A DNA stretch of 64,000 bases from a virus. The stretch lies in IMG/VR virus record IMGVR_UViG_3300008448_000040, positions 14,725 to 78,724 of that record; one strand, 5' to 3'. The notes under the pieces were generated by a model. The model saw only the letters and a list, made by a program, of their open reading frames with translations, was not told the origin of the DNA and ran no database searches. Position numbers and translations under genes: made by a program. This document shows, one piece after another, positions 26,887-59,859 of the stretch (position 1 is its first letter; every line of letters starts with the position of its first letter).

Positions 26887-27552
26887 TTAAGAATCATAAA
26901 CATACTTTTTTCTTTGCTCCAAAACTTCTTTTCCTACTGTTTCGTGTAACTCTCTTAGTTTCTTATCGGAAGGAATGTCAGGCTTGATTGCTAGTTGATC
27001 TCTGCAGTCATACTTGAATTCTTTGAATGGTCCATCAGCATCGACATAATGTAAGAATATTTGAGTCATTTCGTTTCCGAGATAATTACCAGGTCTCCAA
27101 TGAGGAACTTCACATCCTTTGTAAATAGCTAAATCACCTGGTTCTAACAATACCCTTTCTTCTGATCCATCATCTTGATCGAAACACATCTCCCAGGGAA
27201 TAGGATCATAGTAAGTATTGAGAGTGACTGAATATTCACAGCTAGGCCTATCAATATGTTTAGGTAAGATAGAGTCTTTATAGTAAATCCTAAAATAGCT
27301 GTAAGTGGGATATAGTTTTTTACCAGAAACCTCTTCTACCATTGGCTTCAAGTACTCTAATAATGTTTCAGTACAACTCCAGCCATATGCTTTAAAGCAT
27401 TGCTTAGTCATTTTATCTGAAAAATAAGTCAAATCGGATTTGTCTACTCCGAGATTGTAGTAGTAAGTGTCTCTGAAGATCTTAACTTGCTGATTTATGA
27501 ATGAAGTCAGCTCTGGAGAGATAGCATTTCTAATAATGTGATATTTATTCAT
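26887..27552 (-). CDS. 2OG-Fe(II) oxygenase-like protein
   Basis: PTYSYFRIY, HIDRPSCEYSVT, HWR, QIFLHYVD; start moved to MNKYH so it does not overlap the tmRNA. Confidence 0.75.
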   Translation of the reverse strand: MNKYHIIRNAISPELTSFINQQVKIFRDTYYYNLGVDKSDLTYFSDKMTKQCFKAYGWSCTETLLEYLKPMVEEVSGKKLYPTYSYFRIYYKDSILPKHIDRPSCEYSVTLNTYYDPIPWEMCFDQDDGSEERVLLEPGDLAIYKGCEVPHWRPGNYLGNEMTQIFLHYVDADGPFKEFKYDCRDQLAIKPDIPSDKKLRELHETVGKEVLEQRKKYVYDS

Positions 27553-27568
27553 AGAGTCAAAAATTAAT

Positions 27569-27885
27569 GCCGGCTGATTGGGTAATAAGGACAGCCGGCT
27601 AAACCCCATCTAGCAATTTAAGCTGCTAGAGCGTAACGCTCGTCATTTGCGTTTACTATTTTGCTTCATTTACGTCGATCGCCTGACGTGTTGTCCACTC
27701 TCCTACTCCTTGCCCTGTCGAAACCATGTCTGGCCCATCAGAAGTGTCCTGCTGTTCACAGGTCGGGAATTCCAATCCTCAGAGCTTTGTTAAACCCTTA
27801 CATATCACCCTAAACAACACTTCTGGTGGACCAGGCGGGAGTCGAACCCGCGTCCAGAACACCTTTTGGTTTGCTTCATACAACA
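27569..27885 (-). ncRNA. ssrA: Circularly permuted (two-piece) tmRNA, tag ANDERYALAA
   Basis: 3' piece GCGGGTTCGACTCCCGCCTGGTCCACCA ends at 27824 and lies upstream of 5' piece GGGCCAGACATGGTTTCGAC starting at 27736; G3:U70 pair; tag ORF 27650-27618. Confidence 0.92.
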
Positions 27886-27897
27886 ATATCTAACACA

Positions 27898-28110
27898 CTA
27901 TGTAGGATCCACCCCTACGTAACCGACCAGCGGTATCTTAGTCTTGTCGTCGCCTTTGCCACTTCTAGATGAATAGTGTGTTCTTTTTTGCTGTTCACAA
28001 TATTCTACACAGTGTCCACAGCAAATGTCAACATCTTTGAGTCTGTTCAACAGTTCATCTGATGTATCGTAGTCTGATTCTTTGATGTTTCTGCAAACAC
28101 AAACAATCAT
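27898..28110 (-). CDS. Bfd-like [2Fe-2S] ferredoxin
   Basis: MIVCVC...CGHC. Confidence 0.75.
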   Translation of the reverse strand: MIVCVCRNIKESDYDTSDELLNRLKDVDICCGHCVEYCEQQKRTHYSSRSGKGDDKTKIPLVGYVGVDPT

Positions 28111-28122
28111 GAAAACTCCTAG

Positions 28123-28263
28123 TTATCTTATGTAATTTCCTGTCACGACCACATAGATGAACAAGACCCAGCCAAACCTAAGAGCAATATCAAACCAACG
28201 CTCAAAGTGATCTAACCAAGTCTTGTTCGTTCCAGAGTTTTTAGATTCTGGTGAGAGACTCAT
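28123..28263 (-). CDS. Small membrane protein (46 aa)
   Basis: MSLSPESK...RFGWVLFIYVVVTGNYIR; start overlaps rubrerythrin stop. Confidence 0.55.
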   Translation of the reverse strand: MSLSPESKNSGTNKTWLDHFERWFDIALRFGWVLFIYVVVTGNYIR

Positions 28264-28694
28264 TGTACTCCTGCGTTGTAAGCGTCGAGAGTTTTCTTGA
28301 ACTTACCAGCGTGGCTACGCTCTGCCTTAGCAAGAGTTTCAAACCAGTCAGCAATTTCATCAAACCCTTCATCACGAGCAGTCTTAGCCATACCAGGGTA
28401 CATATCAGTATATTCGTGTGTTTCACCCTCGATAGCTGACTCTAGTGCCTGTGCAACATTCTTAACTTCCATACCGGTTGCAGGATCACCAGCAGCACCG
28501 TTCAAAAGGTATTCCATGTGACCATGAGCATGGCCAGTCTCACCTTCAGCTGTATGACGGAACACAGCAGCAACTTCAGGAGATCCTTCAATGTCAGCCA
28601 TGTTTGCGAAATATAGATAACGACGGTTTGCTTGTGATTCACCAGCAAAAGCCTCTTTGAGGTTCAACTCAGTTTTTGTGCCTTTTAAATTCAT
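28260..28694 (-). CDS. Rubrerythrin (short form, no rubredoxin domain)
   Basis: [45 protein letters not shown]. Confidence 0.95.
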
Positions 28695-28703
28695 AATATC
28701 TCC

Positions 28704-28730
28704 AAAAAAATGAGCCCCGTGAGGGGCTCA
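28704..28730 (-). terminator. Intrinsic terminator after pqqA
   Basis: TGAGCCCC-TCAC-GGGGCTCA followed by T7. Confidence 0.85.
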
Positions 28731-28756
28731 ACTATCTAGTGTTGATTGATAGTTGA

Positions 28757-28831
28757 TTAACGATTTGCGATATACATTGTGATTTCAAAACCAAAACGCA
28801 TGTCATTTGCAGTTGGTGTAGTCCACTCCAT
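28757..28831 (-). CDS. pqqA: Coenzyme PQQ precursor peptide PqqA (24 aa)
   Basis: MEWTTPTANDMRFGFEITMYIANR: W-x-x-P and R-x-GFEITMY with ExxxY; AGGAG RBS; absent from ORF track. Confidence 0.92.
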   Translation of the reverse strand: MEWTTPTANDMRFGFEITMYIANR

Positions 28832-28911
28832 TTTTATCTCCTATTGTAAAAGCCACAATTGGCTAGACAGTATCTAGTAAGTTATGACTAAAATACAACT
28901 GGGTAAAAACA

Positions 28912-29034
28912 TTATTTATTGCTAATCCATTCACCTGCTTTTGACAGATCTTTACCTGCACCAGATACAGCACCACCAAGGGTGCCGCATCCAGTCATCA
29001 AAAGCATCAGAACTACTGATGCTAATTTCTTCAT
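28912..29034 (-). CDS. Entericidin A/B-like lipoprotein (40 aa)
   Basis: MKKLASVVLMLLMTGCGTLGGAVSGAGKDLSKAGEWISNK: lipobox plus GAGKD...GE motif; ATGA overlap with upstream gene. Confidence 0.7.
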   Translation of the reverse strand: MKKLASVVLMLLMTGCGTLGGAVSGAGKDLSKAGEWISNK

Positions 29035-43050: not shown

Positions 43051-43349
43051 TAACCTAACCCATGTTTCTTTTTAACTTGATCAGTTTTCACTTGAGCAGC
43101 TGTCCTTGTAACAGTTTTATTTGCCAATTGACTACTGGGATGCGCTTCTGCAACTTTAGAAATAACTTCTTTGAAACCAGAATCGGTTTTGATGCCTCCC
43201 ACACCACCAATTATGTTAAGTGTATCAGAGGGATCAAAGTATCTTTGGAGATGAGGATTGTCTTTGATGAACGAATCATAGTCAGATATACGGACTATAT
43301 GTTCCTCAACATTATTCGAAAGTGTATTTAGGAAAGTATACTTTGCCAT
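43050..43349 (-). CDS. Conserved hypothetical T4-like protein
   Basis: GFKEVISKVAEAHP motif. Confidence 0.65.
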   Translation of the reverse strand: MAKYTFLNTLSNNVEEHIVRISDYDSFIKDNPHLQRYFDPSDTLNIIGGVGGIKTDSGFKEVISKVAEAHPSSQLANKTVTRTAAQVKTDQVKKKHGLG

Positions 43350-44847
43350 ATTGTTCAGTATAAATTTTGTTACCTATCACAAGATAGTCTAGATGTGTAT
43401 TGTAATAAAGTTGTTCAGCGTTATGGGTATAGCCAGCAATAGGCTTTCCACCGAGATTCAAACTTGTATTGAGAAGAACAGGACATCCTGTCAACTCATG
43501 AAACTTCTCTAATAACTTTCTGAAGTGGCCACTATCAGGTTCTACAGTCTGTACCCTGCACGTACCATCAACATGAGTAATAGCATCTAGTTTATCAGTC
43601 TTGGCTTTACCAACATAAAGCATGTATGGGTTATCAAACTCTAGATCAAAATACTCTTCACGATATTCTGAAAGAATAGAAGCACCAAATGGTCTGTACT
43701 GCTCTCTCTTTTTGATCTTGTTGATAATCTCTCTTCCGTTTTGTATTCTTGGATCCATTAGAATAGATCTATTACCAAGAGCTCTGGGACCAATCTCCCC
43801 ACTACCTTGATACCAAGCTACTGTTTTGCCATGTGATAGAACTTTTGCTACAAAGTCTATCACATCGTCTGTGGGCTCATCGCTAGGAGCTTCATCTGTC
43901 TGACTGAATGGAAAATTGGTAAGTTCAATTCTAGGTTGATCATATTTTCTTCTAAGCCACTCCACTGCACCTATGCTGATGCCATCATCTGCTGAGTGGG
44001 GTAAGATAACTAAGTTCTTGAAATGTTTCTTGAGAACAGTGTTCCATATTACATTCTGAGCAACTCCACCAGAATAAAAAATGACGTCATCTGGCTTACA
44101 GTGTTTTTGGAAAAACGATAGAATAACTTCGCCAGCTTTAACATGAACTGTATTGATCCAGTCAAGCATGCGTTGTTTACCCAGCAAAGGATCTCCAATA
44201 TAGTCATTCCATCTATTAAAGTTGAACAACATCTTGGCGTTGTAGATGTCGGCAAAACTTAGTGTGTCAAAATACTTTTTATCAAACTTACCATATGACT
44301 GGAGTCCCATGACTTTACCAGCAATATCTACTTCATGTCCGTAGCTAATGCCGGCAAACTTTCCAAACTCATTCATTAACAACCCAATCGACCCATGTGC
44401 CCATACATCACCCGCTTCGACAAGATTACCTTTCTTGAATACTGACCAAGGAACTTCATTGTCACCAATACCATCAATGATAATTGAGACGTCAGGTTCC
44501 ATATATGGAACATAACTTAAGGCGTGAGCATAGTGATGGTCTATCTGATAGACATCACATGGAACAGGAAACCCCGTGCATTTTTTGACTAGATCAGATG
44601 AAGCACCTTGAGCGTCAGAAATAAACTCGTTGATTGTAGTCTCTTCCATAGAGATACATATTTTATCTATCTCATCAACAGAGACTCCGAACGCTCGTTT
44701 AACATCACCCCTCCAATCAAATAGACCCATTGAAGCGTGATGCTTTTCTTGTTTACTTCTTTCAGTTTTGTGGTACCTTAACTTTTCACCATCATATAAA
44801 GTAAAGTTACTATCATGAGCGTTGATTCTCAATCCCAATAATTTCAT
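43312..44847 (-). CDS. NodU/CmcH-family carbamoyltransferase
   Basis: HDS, HHYAHA, DGIG, GKVMGL, GPRALGNRSIL, HVDGTCRVQTV, LLNTSLN. Confidence 0.92.
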   Translation of the reverse strand: MKLLGLRINAHDSNFTLYDGEKLRYHKTERSKQEKHHASMGLFDWRGDVKRAFGVSVDEIDKICISMEETTINEFISDAQGASSDLVKKCTGFPVPCDVYQIDHHYAHALSYVPYMEPDVSIIIDGIGDNEVPWSVFKKGNLVEAGDVWAHGSIGLLMNEFGKFAGISYGHEVDIAGKVMGLQSYGKFDKKYFDTLSFADIYNAKMLFNFNRWNDYIGDPLLGKQRMLDWINTVHVKAGEVILSFFQKHCKPDDVIFYSGGVAQNVIWNTVLKKHFKNLVILPHSADDGISIGAVEWLRRKYDQPRIELTNFPFSQTDEAPSDEPTDDVIDFVAKVLSHGKTVAWYQGSGEIGPRALGNRSILMDPRIQNGREIINKIKKREQYRPFGASILSEYREEYFDLEFDNPYMLYVGKAKTDKLDAITHVDGTCRVQTVEPDSGHFRKLLEKFHELTGCPVLLNTSLNLGGKPIAGYTHNAEQLYYNTHLDYLVIGNKIYTEQYGKVYFPKYTFE

Positions 44848-51002: not shown

Positions 51003-51077
51003 TGGTTGCGGGGGAAGGAATCGAACCTCCGACCTGTGGATTATGAGTCCACCGCTCTACCGCTGCGCTACCCCGCG
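51003..51077 (-). tRNA. tRNA-Met (CAT) with initiator-like acceptor stem and encoded CCA
   Basis: CGCGGGG...GTGGA-CTCATAA-TCCAC...GGTTCGATTCC...CCCCGCAACCA; C1xA72. Confidence 0.93.
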
Positions 51078-51505
51078 ATTGATTGTATATGCTTTCTGTG
51101 TACCTTACACATTATCCAAGTATTATAATACTTTTCAGGATATAAGAGAACATCTAATTCAAATTGACACTTGGACTCAAAGTAAGTGCACTCACCTTTT
51201 GATTTGCATAGGTAGAGTATATATCTCTCAAAATTATCTTTACCCAAAGAATTGACATCCTTTAATAGTTCTTCATTAGAACCATAGTAATCTTTCCAGT
51301 CTGATTCTACTTTGTACTTTTTCTTCTTGCCTTTAACTTGTCTAGTTTTTTGAGAGTAAAAGAACTTTTTTCCTATGTACTCTCTTCCACTAACTAAATT
51401 TACTATCTTGTAAACGAATCCGTACTTACCTTCTGGGATTTCAATAATAGCTCGGCCTTGAAGTTTCCAATCATTCAATGTTGTCGTCATCGTAGTACTC
51501 CTCAT
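51068..51505 (-). CDS. GIY-YIG endonuclease-like protein
   Basis: GFVY..N...YIGKK, YYGS, E..YYN. Confidence 0.75.
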   Translation of the reverse strand: MRSTTMTTTLNDWKLQGRAIIEIPEGKYGFVYKIVNLVSGREYIGKKFFYSQKTRQVKGKKKKYKVESDWKDYYGSNEELLKDVNSLGKDNFERYILYLCKSKGECTYFESKCQFELDVLLYPEKYYNTWIMCKVHRKHIQSIAG

Positions 51506-52182: not shown

Positions 52183-53589
52183 TTAGAAGTTGAACTGACT
52201 TCGGAACATTACTGCCCTATCTCCAGTCACTCTACCGCCAGAAGACCCTACCAAGTGATCAAACTTGGTATCTACATAATTAACCATAAATCTGAGGTTA
52301 TCTGTAGCGAACCAAGTTATACCGTAGGTAGTAGAGACCGCTCTGTTGGATTTGCCAGCAACAACAGTTATAGGAGATGCATCAAACTCGCTCAGACGAA
52401 CTCCGACTTGCCATGCACCTTTACCACCTTTGTCAACTGGGTTGGATGGTTTGATTGAACTAAACACACCGTCCTTGTAATTATGACTCTCTCCAGTTAG
52501 GTTGTACGTTGCAAGAATATAATGACCAATTATTTTTTGATCATTTCCAGTAGTTGGATCATAGTTGAATTCAAACTGCTCTCCTTGAACTTTTAATCCT
52601 TGGTAGGCAATTGCAGCTTCTAGACCTTGACGAGTTCTTGATGTTTCTCCAACTAATGCTGGACCAGTAAACCAAGCATTTTGTCCTCTTGATTCTGTTC
52701 TACCACTAGCAGGAGTAACTCCACCTTTGATATCACCTACACTATAGGCAGCTCCTAGATGTGCTGTGTAAGCCTTGCTACCAGTTAGTTCGGCAATGTT
52801 AGTAGTAACACGACCAATATAATCAAGACTATCTGTTACAGCATCTTTGTTACCTCTACCGCGACTTACAGCCATTGCGTAAGTAAGACCTGGTTTAGGA
52901 ATACCATGTAGCATGAAACCTGTTTCTTTAGCAGGAATGAACTCACCCTCGACCTGACCAATCAGGCTTCGTTCCATAAAATCAAGGTTATTGGAGCTAG
53001 TTAGCTGCTCAAGACTGAATGGCATCTTAAAAAGACCAAACTGAAACTGAGCTTCTGGATTAGCTGCATAGTTGACCCAAGCAACATCCATTGTTGTTGA
53101 TGAGCTGGCAGCTCCAACATCATTACCTAGATTACCTACAATTTCATATTTAAAGTCTTTTTGGAATTGACCACGTACTCCAAACCTTGTACGGCGAACT
53201 TCAGCTACGTTCTGATACGTATCCGTGGTTTGACCTGTACCGAAGGACGGGGTGTACTGACGATAGTCCATATGTAATCGACCTGTAAGTTGGATGGTAT
53301 TGTTTCCATCTTTACTTTTAAGTCCGATTCCGTTTTCTGTGACTGAACCATCATTTGCTCTGGCCTGTCTCCACTTATTGTTTTCGCTAACATCTTTGTC
53401 GATTCTGAATTCCGAGAACTTTCGGTTTTCAGCTTTTTCTTCATGTTCCTGGATTTTGACATCATATTCCTTTTGTGTCAATACACCCTTGTCTTTAAGG
53501 ATTCGAAGTGTATTTACATAGTCATCTGCATAAGCAGGTACAGAGAATACCAATGCCACTGATAGTGCTAGTTTTGTAAATGATTTCAT
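52183..53589 (-). CDS. Phosphate-selective porin OprO/OprP family
   Basis: Signal peptide; GRLHMD, VRRTRFG, GLFKMPFSLEQLTSSN..DFMERS; C-terminal F; adjacent to pstS. Confidence 0.85.
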   Translation of the reverse strand: MKSFTKLALSVALVFSVPAYADDYVNTLRILKDKGVLTQKEYDVKIQEHEEKAENRKFSEFRIDKDVSENNKWRQARANDGSVTENGIGLKSKDGNNTIQLTGRLHMDYRQYTPSFGTGQTTDTYQNVAEVRRTRFGVRGQFQKDFKYEIVGNLGNDVGAASSSTTMDVAWVNYAANPEAQFQFGLFKMPFSLEQLTSSNNLDFMERSLIGQVEGEFIPAKETGFMLHGIPKPGLTYAMAVSRGRGNKDAVTDSLDYIGRVTTNIAELTGSKAYTAHLGAAYSVGDIKGGVTPASGRTESRGQNAWFTGPALVGETSRTRQGLEAAIAYQGLKVQGEQFEFNYDPTTGNDQKIIGHYILATYNLTGESHNYKDGVFSSIKPSNPVDKGGKGAWQVGVRLSEFDASPITVVAGKSNRAVSTTYGITWFATDNLRFMVNYVDTKFDHLVGSSGGRVTGDRAVMFRSQFNF

Positions 53590-53598
53590 TGCTGTTCC

Positions 53599-54621
53599 TT
53601 ATTTCCAAATTGGATTGCCGTCTGGACCACGGAAGTCTTTCTTCCAGTTTTCCTGTACGAGTTTAATTACGTCTTGTGGCATATGAACATACTCTAACTC
53701 TGTTGACATTTGACCACCGTTCTTGTAACTCCAATCAAAGAATTTAAGAACTGCACGACCTGTCAATGCATCTGCCTGTTGCTTGTGCATTAGAATAAAA
53801 CTTGCACCTGTTGCTGGCCATGCATCCTTGCCTGTCTGCCATGTTAATAGTAAGTACATTCCTGGAGCATTATTCCAATCTGCATTAGCAGCTGCTGCTT
53901 TGAATGTAGTATCGTCAGGTAATACAAAGTTGCCGTCACGATTCTTCAATGCTGCATAAGGAATCTTATTACGCTTAGCATATGCATACTCCACGTAACC
54001 AAAGGCACCTTTCAGTCTCTGTACTTGTGCTGCAACACCTTCGTTACCTTTACCACCTACCCCTACTGGCCATTTAACTGCTGTGCCTTCACCTACAGAT
54101 TTTGCAAACTCTGCGTTAGCTTTGCCCAAGAAGTTTGTCCAGATAAATGTAGTACCTGAACCATCAGCGCGGTGCACAACTGTAATGTTCATAGCAGGTA
54201 AATTTACTCCAGGATTGATTTCTGCAATCGCTTTATCATTCCATTTAGTAATTTTACCAAGATGAATGTTTGCAATGATGTCTGGAGTTAATTTTAACTT
54301 ACCAGCATCAATGCCGTCTAGATTAAACACTGGTACAACTCCACCAATGATGGCTGGAAACTGTACTAGACCTTCTTTATCAAGCTCATCTTTCTTTAAT
54401 GGCATATCGCTTGCACCAAAGTCAACTGTCTTGGCTTTGATCTGACGAATACCGCCACCTGAACCGATAGATTGATAATTCAATCCAATACCAGTCTGTG
54501 CTTTGTATGCTTCTGCCCACTTAGCATAGATTGGAAATGGGAATGTTGCTCCTGCCCCAGTAAATTCAGCAGCATTTACAACACCAGATAATAATAGTAA
54601 GGATAGTAATAGCTTTTTCAT
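53599..54621 (-). CDS. pstS: Phosphate ABC transporter substrate-binding protein
   Basis: GAGATFPFPIY, YQSIGSGGG, DFGASD, RADGSGTT, GKGNEGV. Confidence 0.97.
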   Translation of the reverse strand: MKKLLLSLLLLSGVVNAAEFTGAGATFPFPIYAKWAEAYKAQTGIGLNYQSIGSGGGIRQIKAKTVDFGASDMPLKKDELDKEGLVQFPAIIGGVVPVFNLDGIDAGKLKLTPDIIANIHLGKITKWNDKAIAEINPGVNLPAMNITVVHRADGSGTTFIWTNFLGKANAEFAKSVGEGTAVKWPVGVGGKGNEGVAAQVQRLKGAFGYVEYAYAKRNKIPYAALKNRDGNFVLPDDTTFKAAAANADWNNAPGMYLLLTWQTGKDAWPATGASFILMHKQQADALTGRAVLKFFDWSYKNGGQMSTELEYVHMPQDVIKLVQENWKKDFRGPDGNPIWK

Positions 54622-57594: not shown

Positions 57595-57918
57595 TTAGAC
57601 TGTAAACGATGACCCACACCCACAAGTTGCCTTCACGTTGGGATTCTTGATTTTGAACTCAGCACCCATCAAAGAAGTTTCATAATCAATCTCAGCTTCA
57701 TTAAGATATTGCATACTCATTGAATCTACTACAATCTGAATACCATCTTTCTCAAATGTGAAGTCATCCTCTGCTGGAGGATTATCTTCCATAGTAAATC
57801 CATACTGAAAACCAGAACAACCTCCACCCTGAACAAAGATTCTGAGTTTAAGAGAGGGATCTTCTTCTTCGATTATTGATCTAATCTTACTTGCAGCTGC
57901 GGTTGTTATATTAATCAT
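57595..57918 (-). CDS. erpA: A-type Fe-S carrier ErpA/IscA
   Basis: [28 protein letters not shown]. Confidence 0.9.
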
Positions 57919-58094
57919 TACTTACCTTTAAAGCTACTACACGTTAATTCAAACTCTTGTTGCTTGGACATAATCTGACCGTATGATGCTTTTGGATTTC
58001 TTTGTCTGTAGTCTTCCTTCTCTCTTTCTATACAAAGATCATATTGAGAACTACATCCAGCTAATAAAAATATAAAAAGTAAACTCTTCTTCAT
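57918..58094 (-). CDS. Small lipoprotein (58 aa)
   Basis: [14 protein letters not shown] lipobox; overlaps both neighbours. Confidence 0.6.
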
Positions 58095-58795
58095 TTGCTT
58101 ACCTCGACTAATCTAAACCATTTGAGAATATTAATGTACATCCATCCAATATCAAACTCGAACCATTTCAAACTAAGCTTTGGATTACTAGGATCAAGAT
58201 GATGATTATTATGAAGTAACTCACCACCAACCAGAACATCAATCGGAACAACATTTCGAGATTCTTCTCTCGTATCGCCGTTTCTATATCCCCAGCTATG
58301 TCCCACGCCGTTGACCACACCAGCTGCCCAAAACGGTATCCAAGCGACTTGACATATCCAAAGTCCAATCCCAATAACGCCAAACAAAATAATATTAATA
58401 CAAAGCAAAACAAGTACACCAACAAAAGAATACTTACTGTAGACATTTCTTTCTAACCAATCATCCGGAGTTCCTCTACCGTATGTATCAACCATTACTC
58501 TATCCCTGGCTGCTTTATTGTATAGAAAAGCTCCTTTAAACAACACATTTAACAATCCGTAATGAACTGGTGAGTGAGGATCTTTCTCTTCATCACAGTA
58601 TCTATGATGTAATCTGTGAACTGCAACCCATTCCTTAGTCACCATTCCTGTCGTCATCCATAGCCAGAATCTCATGAAGTGAGATAGGATTGGATTGAAC
58701 ACTAATGATTTATGAGCCTGACCTCTATGTAAGAATAATGTAACACATATAATAGTAATGTGTGTACATACAAGTAAGTAAATTAATTCATACAT
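58091..58795 (-). CDS. Membrane fatty-acid (delta-9-type) desaturase
   Basis: His boxes HRGQAH, HRLHH, HNNHH; DPHSP; FEFDIGW. Confidence 0.92.
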   Translation of the reverse strand: MYELIYLLVCTHITIICVTLFLHRGQAHKSLVFNPILSHFMRFWLWMTTGMVTKEWVAVHRLHHRYCDEEKDPHSPVHYGLLNVLFKGAFLYNKAARDRVMVDTYGRGTPDDWLERNVYSKYSFVGVLVLLCINIILFGVIGIGLWICQVAWIPFWAAGVVNGVGHSWGYRNGDTREESRNVVPIDVLVGGELLHNNHHLDPSNPKLSLKWFEFDIGWMYINILKWFRLVEVSK

Positions 58796-59859
58796 TATTT
58801 TTTTGTCCAATCTGAGAAGATAAACCTGTCATAATACTCATAGAAATATTTTAAACCAATTTCCATGGGATCATGAACAGGACCGTAGTCATCAAATCTC
58901 ATATTGTTCAAATGATTTCTACCTCTGTCCATTCTTTCTGCAATCTCATCATCCTCAAAGCATGTTTCCATATAAGCTGCTTGATGAGCTTTAACAAACT
59001 CTTGTTCAAAGTGAGCGATGTCTTCAGGATAGTAAAAGTCTACTATATTTCTTGTCTTCTGTGGCGTCACTGGCCACACAGATGATATGACAAGTACTTC
59101 TGGATACCATTCTACCATCACATTAGGATATATTGTGAGCCATATAGCTCCAAACTCTGGTACAACTCCTTTTCTATAATCAAGTAGCACTTTGTGCCAT
59201 TGTTTATAAACTGGAGTACCAGCCAACTTTAATTGATTATTGACACCAACTGATTGAACAGAATACCTATCACCAAATTGCCAATCAAGTTTACCACAAT
59301 CAACAAAGTTACCTAGTCCAGGATGAAATGGATCCACGTGATAGTCATCCAAATATACTTCAATGAATGTTTTCCAGTTATAGTTACATTCGTGCTCTTT
59401 TCTAGAGTGAAAGACGTACCCATCAAAATTAAAATGGTTAGCGAGTCTCATTTGTTTGAGATCGCTAACTATATCAAATGCATCTTTTTGAAACACCAAT
59501 CCGTTCCACTCTTGAGTCTGAAACTTTCTTAGTGATGCATTGGGACACGGATCAAAATGAGGAGCACCAACTAGCTTACCTGATGTATCGTAAGTCCATC
59601 CATGTAGAGGACAGACAATACTAGACGTAGAGCCAGATCCTTTTAGAATTGTTGCTTGTCTATGTCTACAAACATTAGATACACATTCAATACCATTAGA
59701 TGTATTAAGTAGAAACAATCCATCATCGCTCTGAGGAACAACAGAGTAGTTACCTAGTTCAGGTACAAGATGTTTATGACCAACATAATTAGCATGACGA
59801 AATAAAATATGTTCTCTTTCAAGAATAGAATCATCAAAGTAAAAATGTGATGGTTTCAT
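58795..59859 (-). CDS. Rieske non-heme iron oxygenase alpha subunit
   Basis: CRH...CPLHGW Rieske motif; NWKTFIEVYLDDYHVDPFH iron site. Confidence 0.92.
   Translation of the reverse strand: MKPSHFYFDDSILEREHILFRHANYVGHKHLVPELGNYSVVPQSDDGLFLLNTSNGIECVSNVCRHRQATILKGSGSTSSIVCPLHGWTYDTSGKLVGAPHFDPCPNASLRKFQTQEWNGLVFQKDAFDIVSDLKQMRLANHFNFDGYVFHSRKEHECNYNWKTFIEVYLDDYHVDPFHPGLGNFVDCGKLDWQFGDRYSVQSVGVNNQLKLAGTPVYKQWHKVLLDYRKGVVPEFGAIWLTIYPNVMVEWYPEVLVISSVWPVTPQKTRNIVDFYYPEDIAHFEQEFVKAHQAAYMETCFEDDEIAERMDRGRNHLNNMRFDDYGPVHDPMEIGLKYFYEYYDRFIFSDWTKK

Follow-up and report, generated by a model that had tools for sequence, protein, structure and literature searches.

The pqqA locus and its neighbours

An open reading frame of 24 codons and a TAA stop, with the translation MEWTTPTANDMRFGFEITMYIANR, lies on the minus strand at positions 28757-28831 of the window, among the genes of a T4-like phage. 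The window is the whole stretch of DNA that we analysed, and takes up 64 kb of an IMG/VR virus record that is 78.7 kb long, with an estimated completeness of 45%. The features of the locus are as follows.

27545-27937, minus strand: two-piece (permuted) tmRNA with the tag ANDERYALAA (Rfam beta_tmRNA 140 bits, tmRNA_permuted 144.9 bits)
28260-28694, minus strand: rubrerythrin gene, 144 aa, downstream of pqqA (PF02915, 96.1 bits)
28704-28730, minus strand: intrinsic terminator (8-bp stem with 6 G-C at 28730-28711, 4-nt loop, T7 tail)
28728-28756, minus strand: first 3' hairpin, directly after the pqqA stop (9-nt inverted repeat, 11-nt loop)
28757-28831, minus strand: pqqA coding sequence (open reading frame, PF08042 and TIGR02107 profiles)
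28832-28911, minus strand: 80-nt 5' intergenic region with a predicted hairpin; no promoter assignable
28838-28842, minus strand: Shine-Dalgarno sequence AGGAG, 6 nt before the pqqA ATG, read from the sequence
28912-29034, minus strand: entericidin-like lipoprotein gene, 40 aa, upstream of pqqA (PF08085, 24.4 bits; cut-off 23.3)

The original prediction had named the 24-aa product as a PqqA peptide, and profile searches agreed: it scored 37.9 bits against the Pfam profile PF08042 (cut-off 21.1, E 1.7e-9) and 39.3 bits against the NCBIfam equivalog TIGR02107 (cut-off 20, E 3.9e-10), with both models aligned end to end with the peptide. The open reading frame is a genuine pqqA, and it was the only match when the whole 78.7-kb record was searched with PqqA profiles. 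Its 24 residues place it among the short ribosomal peptides (about 20-40 aa) with a conserved leader that make up the PqqA family. The E-x-x-x-Y pair is E16-I-T-M-Y20, i.e. Glu16 and Tyr20, and the leader contains Trp3 and Pro6. In the established biochemistry of PQQ, PqqE cross-links the Glu and the Tyr of PqqA, and PqqD is the peptide chaperone; the W and P of the leader probably play a role in PqqD binding. The window gene is not linked to pqqBCDE, which does not exclude it from the family, as such linkage is typical of pqqA rather than obligatory and orphan copies occur in bacteria too.

Both flanks of pqqA are viral: one has the gp32, gp59 and baseplate genes, the other those of DUF932, NT5C, RNase H and ribonucleotide reductase. 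A host-type gene is therefore bounded on both sides by viral genes, as is expected of a viral auxiliary metabolic gene. The phage is T4-like: we identified genes for gp32, the gp59 loader, RNase H, a SegE-like endonuclease and proteins of the baseplate and tail, as well as ThyX and the two subunits of ribonucleotide reductase. Among cultured phages, its gp32 comes nearest to that of cyanomyophages (about 54% identity). DNA of the phage was found only in freshwater and lake metagenomes and in one aquaculture metagenome, from about 10 studies.

Within this region, pqqA belongs to a co-oriented run of small genes in the order DUF932, entericidin-like lipoprotein, pqqA, rubrerythrin, small open reading frames, two-piece tmRNA and a 240-aa open reading frame, the last of which had no family match above threshold. 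We identified beta-type two-piece tmRNAs at the pqqA loci of three relatives, L074 (2793-3114), L068 (4022-4393) and L035 (13913-14302). In L074, which is syntenic with the window phage and has a DUF932 protein 80% identical to its counterpart, the tmRNA lies immediately upstream of pqqA.

Expression signals and RNA structure

The original prediction had credited the gene with a strong ribosome-binding site, a terminator of its own and a candidate late promoter. The first two were recovered, as an AGGAG located 6 nt 5' of the ATG and as an 8-bp stem with 6 G-C pairs followed by a T7 tail, placed between pqqA and the rubrerythrin gene. The stem of this terminator overlaps the first 3' hairpin by 3 nt. 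The late promoter did not hold up. The only late-promoter-like word upstream of pqqA is AATAAATA at 28913-28920, which the window contains 7 times where 6.6 are expected, i.e. at chance level; the T4 late consensus TATAAATA, with two occurrences for 5.0 expected, is if anything depleted. With neither word enriched, we rejected a late promoter for pqqA as unsupported.

No sigma-70-like site was found at 28832-28912. An alignment of the upstream regions of eight class-2 loci revealed TATAAT-like words in some relatives, none of them conserved in the window. The gene may be transcribed by read-through from DUF932 and the lipoprotein gene that precede it.

The predicted fold of the transcript region (28700-28912) was better than those of all 200 shuffled sequences (z = -3.81). 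Hairpins 5' and 3' of pqqA were identified in relatives as well, with sequences that differ from one relative to another.

The pqqA gene stands alone

Models for PqqB, PqqC, PqqE and the methanol/ethanol PQQ dehydrogenase gave no match anywhere in the 78.7-kb record, and as a positive control the PqqC and PqqE models scored above cut-off in five bacterial genomes. Similarly, tblastn searches that used the PqqB, C, D and E of the bacterial L008 operon detected no pqqB-E in the window or in the 1.02 Mb of sequence surrounding 120 further viral copies of pqqA. With these queries, pqqB-E were identified beside 40 of 129 bacterial copies. For the remaining 89, no pqqB-E lay within 4 kb; many of these 89 copies were close to the end of the stretch examined. 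The window thus lacks pqqB, C and E by profile searches and pqqB-E by tblastn, as had been supposed from its open reading frames. These genes could lie on the missing part of the incomplete record; no complete methylophage genome has them.

Across 50,697 GenBank phage records, PqqB, C and E were found only in two contigs labelled 'Acinetobacter phage MD-2021a' (CAKLQF020000010.1, which is the L008 locus, and CAKLQH020000055.1). We rejected these as phage sequences, since they carry fur, ppk, entB and pqqABCDE and are mislabelled bacterial chromosome.

Distribution and selection of viral pqqA

Searching GenBank phages with the peptide by tblastn returned phages of Methylophilales, one metagenomic phage from spring water, and the mislabelled Acinetobacter contigs only. 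Six cultured types of Methylophilales phage were represented, comprising four Melnitz myoviruses, the siphoviruses P19250A, Venkman and MEP301, and MEP401 and MEP402, the latter classified in Zobellviridae; pqqA is present in three unrelated morphotypes of cultured methylophages. To our knowledge, pqqA is among the smallest auxiliary metabolic genes known, and because of this very small size it is missed by gene callers and in GenBank records. It was unannotated in all the phage records that we inspected (MZ577097, 76100-76205; MW202481, 2067-2195; KX815270; MT375522; MW452941; OP830907), and in Melnitz and the spring-water phage (Manatee Spring) a hypothetical open reading frame is annotated over it on the opposite strand. 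The paper describing Melnitz does not mention pqqA, and PQQ figures there solely as a supplement to the medium.

In IMG/VR, a degenerate DNA pattern for MRFGFE[VI]TMY matched at least 120 contigs, and all 120 of the contigs listed contained an intact PqqA open reading frame of 23-25 codons. The 110 viral frames of 23 codons comprised 99 unique nucleotide sequences encoding 40 peptides. In the 12 codons that the search pattern left free, these 99 sequences gave a pN/pS of 0.29 at a pS of 0.50. The leader Trp and Pro, both of which lie outside the search pattern, were invariant among them; the E-x-x-x-Y pair was present in all the viral copies compared, partly by construction of the pattern. Judged from these sequence comparisons, viral pqqA is under purifying selection, and the selective maintenance expected of a viral auxiliary metabolic gene is seen both in the pN/pS value and in the intact frames. 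Within the window phage itself, contigs from four freshwater runs differed at four sites in pqqA, three of them synonymous third positions and the fourth altering the non-conserved Asn9.

The base composition of the window gene is that of the phage, at 37% G+C (GC3 32%) against 38% for the phage and 49-64% for bacterial loci of the same peptide type, which points to a long residence in phages rather than a recent capture.

A probable role in supplying the substrate of PQQ synthesis

We consider it likely that pqqA is a stand-alone auxiliary metabolic gene of this freshwater T4-like phage, whose peptide would be fed to the PQQ pathway of the host. The comparative evidence supports this reading well: pqqA is alone in all the viral loci examined, it appears to be under purifying selection, and pqqC and pqqE are present in the bacterial lineages with the most similar peptides. 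The gene additionally has translation and termination signals of its own, and stands by itself in a lytic-type phage genome. One PqqA peptide is destroyed for each PQQ made, and the peptide is thus consumed stoichiometrically. During infection, the phage transcript would be translated into PqqA, in which the PqqD and PqqE of the host would cross-link Glu16 to Tyr20, with PqqB, PqqC and a protease of the host then completing PQQ. The small pqqA mRNA of the host would be lost after host shut-off, and the phage copy could keep the PQQ-dependent periplasmic dehydrogenases, and hence respiratory energy, going. PQQ is a reusable cofactor, and this scheme assumes that fresh synthesis is needed within one infection cycle. 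Many pqqA copies in Methylophilaceae have no pqqB-E within 4 kb, which suggests that the supply of the precursor limits the pathway. In OM43, the PQQ enzyme XoxF was always the most abundant transcript (PMC5120137).

The conserved W and P of the leader would equally well suit a peptide that binds PqqD or PqqE of the host without becoming PQQ, or that titrates the pathway, so that PQQ synthesis stops or radical-SAM and iron resources go to the phage. We regard such a decoy or inhibitor as improbable, since it would be free to lose the Glu, the Tyr and the rest of the core, all of which are identical to those of functional bacterial PqqA from pqqABCDE operons. The relatives from Lake Baikal, in which methanol dehydrogenase accompanies pqqA (PMC7678222), likewise fit a boosting of the pathway and not its blocking. 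A role other than in making PQQ, such as that of a small regulatory peptide or of a structured RNA element, might be read from the folding of the transcript region beyond its shuffles and from the 5' and 3' hairpins of the relatives. However, conservation is at the level of the amino acids, with third positions free, and the hairpin sequences are not conserved among relatives; we hold such a role to be very unlikely.

It is more doubtful still that pqqA is a neutral passenger, a chance scrap of host DNA in a hyperplastic region that brings the phage no benefit. The gene does lie in a variable region of small genes beside tmRNA and tRNA genes, and its neighbours vary among relatives. Against this, the frame is intact in every one of the listed viral contigs, with a low pN/pS at a synonymous divergence of about 0.5, and the base composition has been fully adjusted to the phage. 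The ribosome-binding site and terminator of its own, and the presence of pqqA in three unrelated morphotypes of cultured methylophages, similarly argue against a passenger.

Peptide type and the probable host

The viral and bacterial PqqA peptides resolve into two loose types. Most of the viral copies listed, along with the cultured siphovirus and podovirus isolates, end in ...EMRFGFEVTMYVMNK or a near variant, the commonest form in Methylophilaceae; Melnitz PqqA has the same core with another C-terminus. The window peptide ends in ...DMRFGFEITMYIANR (its C-terminal 15 residues) and matches the Methylophilaceae form at only 14-15 of 24 positions. Agreement was highest, at 21 of 24 residues, with four viral loci (L011, L050, L058 and L100) and an Albidiferax MAG, and slightly lower with MAGs of Rhodoferax, Limnobacter and Tepidimonas (20/24) and Polaromonas (19/24). 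With PqqA of these Comamonadaceae (Albidiferax, Rhodoferax, Polaromonas), Limnobacter and Tepidimonas, the window peptide shares an identical C-terminal DMRFGFEITMYIANR and 19-21 residues of 24 overall. Unlike the Comamonadaceae-type operons, where pqqA adjoins pqqBCDE at 49-64% G+C, the phage gene is alone and of 37% G+C. In nine of ten bacterial loci with the DMRFGFEITMYIANR C-terminus, pqqBCDE adjoins pqqA. Relatives of the window phage, including L074 and L058, have the same peptide type, and intermediate viral forms are present (e.g. ...EITMYVMNR and ...EVTMYIANR).

Of 101 genomes sampled from the Rhodoferax MAG's family, 10 contained the pattern GFEITMYIANR, as against none of 101 sampled from the family of Ca. 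Methylopumilus (Methylophilaceae; Fisher p = 0.0015), and an order-level pattern search gave 3 matches in 401 genomes. Both PqqC and PqqE scored above cut-off in all five genomes checked, those of Rhodoferax, Albidiferax, Limnobacter, Methylopumilus and Methylobacillus, and a PQQ alcohol dehydrogenase did so in three of them.

The phage encodes an OprO/P-like porin, which a protein atlas placed only to the phylum Pseudomonadota; an outer-membrane porin points to a Gram-negative host. The host is probably a freshwater member of the Burkholderiales. From the peptide type, we put a Comamonadaceae-like rather than a Methylophilaceae host at about even odds and no higher, because the peptide is short, intermediate viral forms exist, the G+C content of the phage (38%) is far lower than that of Comamonadaceae loci, and no match above cut-off to the beta-type tmRNA model (RF01850) was obtained in any of the five genomes tested as candidate hosts, among them Rhodoferax, Albidiferax and Limnobacter.

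We more tentatively propose, while leaning somewhat against it, that viral pqqA extends beyond the phages of Methylophilaceae, and that a second viral lineage (...DMRFGFEITMYIANR) came from the pqqABCDE operons of freshwater Burkholderiales resembling Comamonadaceae and travels in T4-like and tRNA-rich large phages with a two-piece tmRNA and with iron and redox helper genes, namely rubrerythrin, a Bfd-like open reading frame and an IscA-like gene. In that case, providing PQQ precursor would be a strategy of phages of quinoprotein-dependent hosts in general.

Relation to known systems

In bacteria that are abundant in fresh and marine waters, the oxidation of methanol and alcohols is driven by PQQ-dependent dehydrogenases, and a phage gene sustaining the supply of PQQ would link infection to one-carbon and alcohol turnover. 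In cyanophages with psbA, the phage brings the consumed component and the host machinery does the rest. The phage pqqA may be compared with psbA as a functional analogue only, in that the phage would encode just the rapidly consumed part of a host energy system. The protein and the pathway are unrelated: D1 is a subunit prone to turnover, and PqqA a substrate sacrificed in biosynthesis.

Viral pqqA had been suspected to be known already from freshwater metagenomes, and this is the case. It was reported in 2020 from T4-like phages of Lake Baikal that were assigned to Methylophilaceae, where it was found with a viral methanol dehydrogenase and read as an auxiliary metabolic gene (Coutinho et al., Microbiome 8:163, PMC7678222), and it is listed again in a reservoir study of 2026 (PMC13188868). 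The window phage resembles VP_266 of Lake Baikal (PMC7678222) as a freshwater T4-like phage with a PQQ precursor gene, seen as supporting PQQ-dependent metabolism. In contrast to the Methylophilaceae-assigned Lake Baikal phages with their methanol dehydrogenase, the window record has no such dehydrogenase and a different peptide type.

The cultured Methylophilales phages (Melnitz, Venkman, P19250A, MEP301, MEP401 and MEP402) similarly have a stand-alone pqqA of 23-24 codons and no pqqB-E in complete genomes, and a hairpin follows the gene in the copies read out, as in the window. Their hosts are known, however (OM43 and LD28), and their PqqA peptides are identical to that of the window at 16 of 24 positions at most. 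The concept of a viral pqqA is thus already known, and what is new here is the Rhodoferax/Comamonadaceae peptide type in place of the usual methylotroph type. The window adds a further example of viral pqqA, and a hint of hosts beyond Methylophilaceae.

Additional observations on the phage genomes

Besides the window, rubrerythrin accompanies pqqA in three further viral loci, L058 (93-512, 79% identity, directly beside pqqA), L100 (3686-4051, 45%) and L107 (2526-2867, 42%), with a different gene order. This neighbourhood may reflect an oxidative-stress or iron theme tied to PQQ synthesis. A 70-aa open reading frame at 27898-28110 on the minus strand of the window, whose 3' end overlaps the tmRNA call, has the cysteine pattern CxC...CCGHC; it had no Pfam or NCBIfam match at E <= 1.

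In several large phages (L011, L050 and L035), pqqA sits within or next to an array of tRNA genes (some 20 or more of them in L011, and likewise in L035), and in Melnitz (L002, 3512-5170) it is located between tRNA-Arg and tRNA-Leu. Clusters of small-RNA genes seem to be a preferred site of the pqqA mini-gene.

Finally, we identified a set of host-like genes elsewhere on the minus strand of the window (52183-54621, 57595-59859 and 43312-44847), comprising the OprO/P-type phosphate porin beside PstS, an IscA-like Fe-S carrier, a fatty-acid desaturase, the alpha subunit of a Rieske ring-hydroxylating oxygenase and a carbamoyltransferase. The SegE-like endonuclease, a GIY-YIG homing endonuclease at 51003-51505 on the minus strand, directly adjoins the single tRNA-Met gene.
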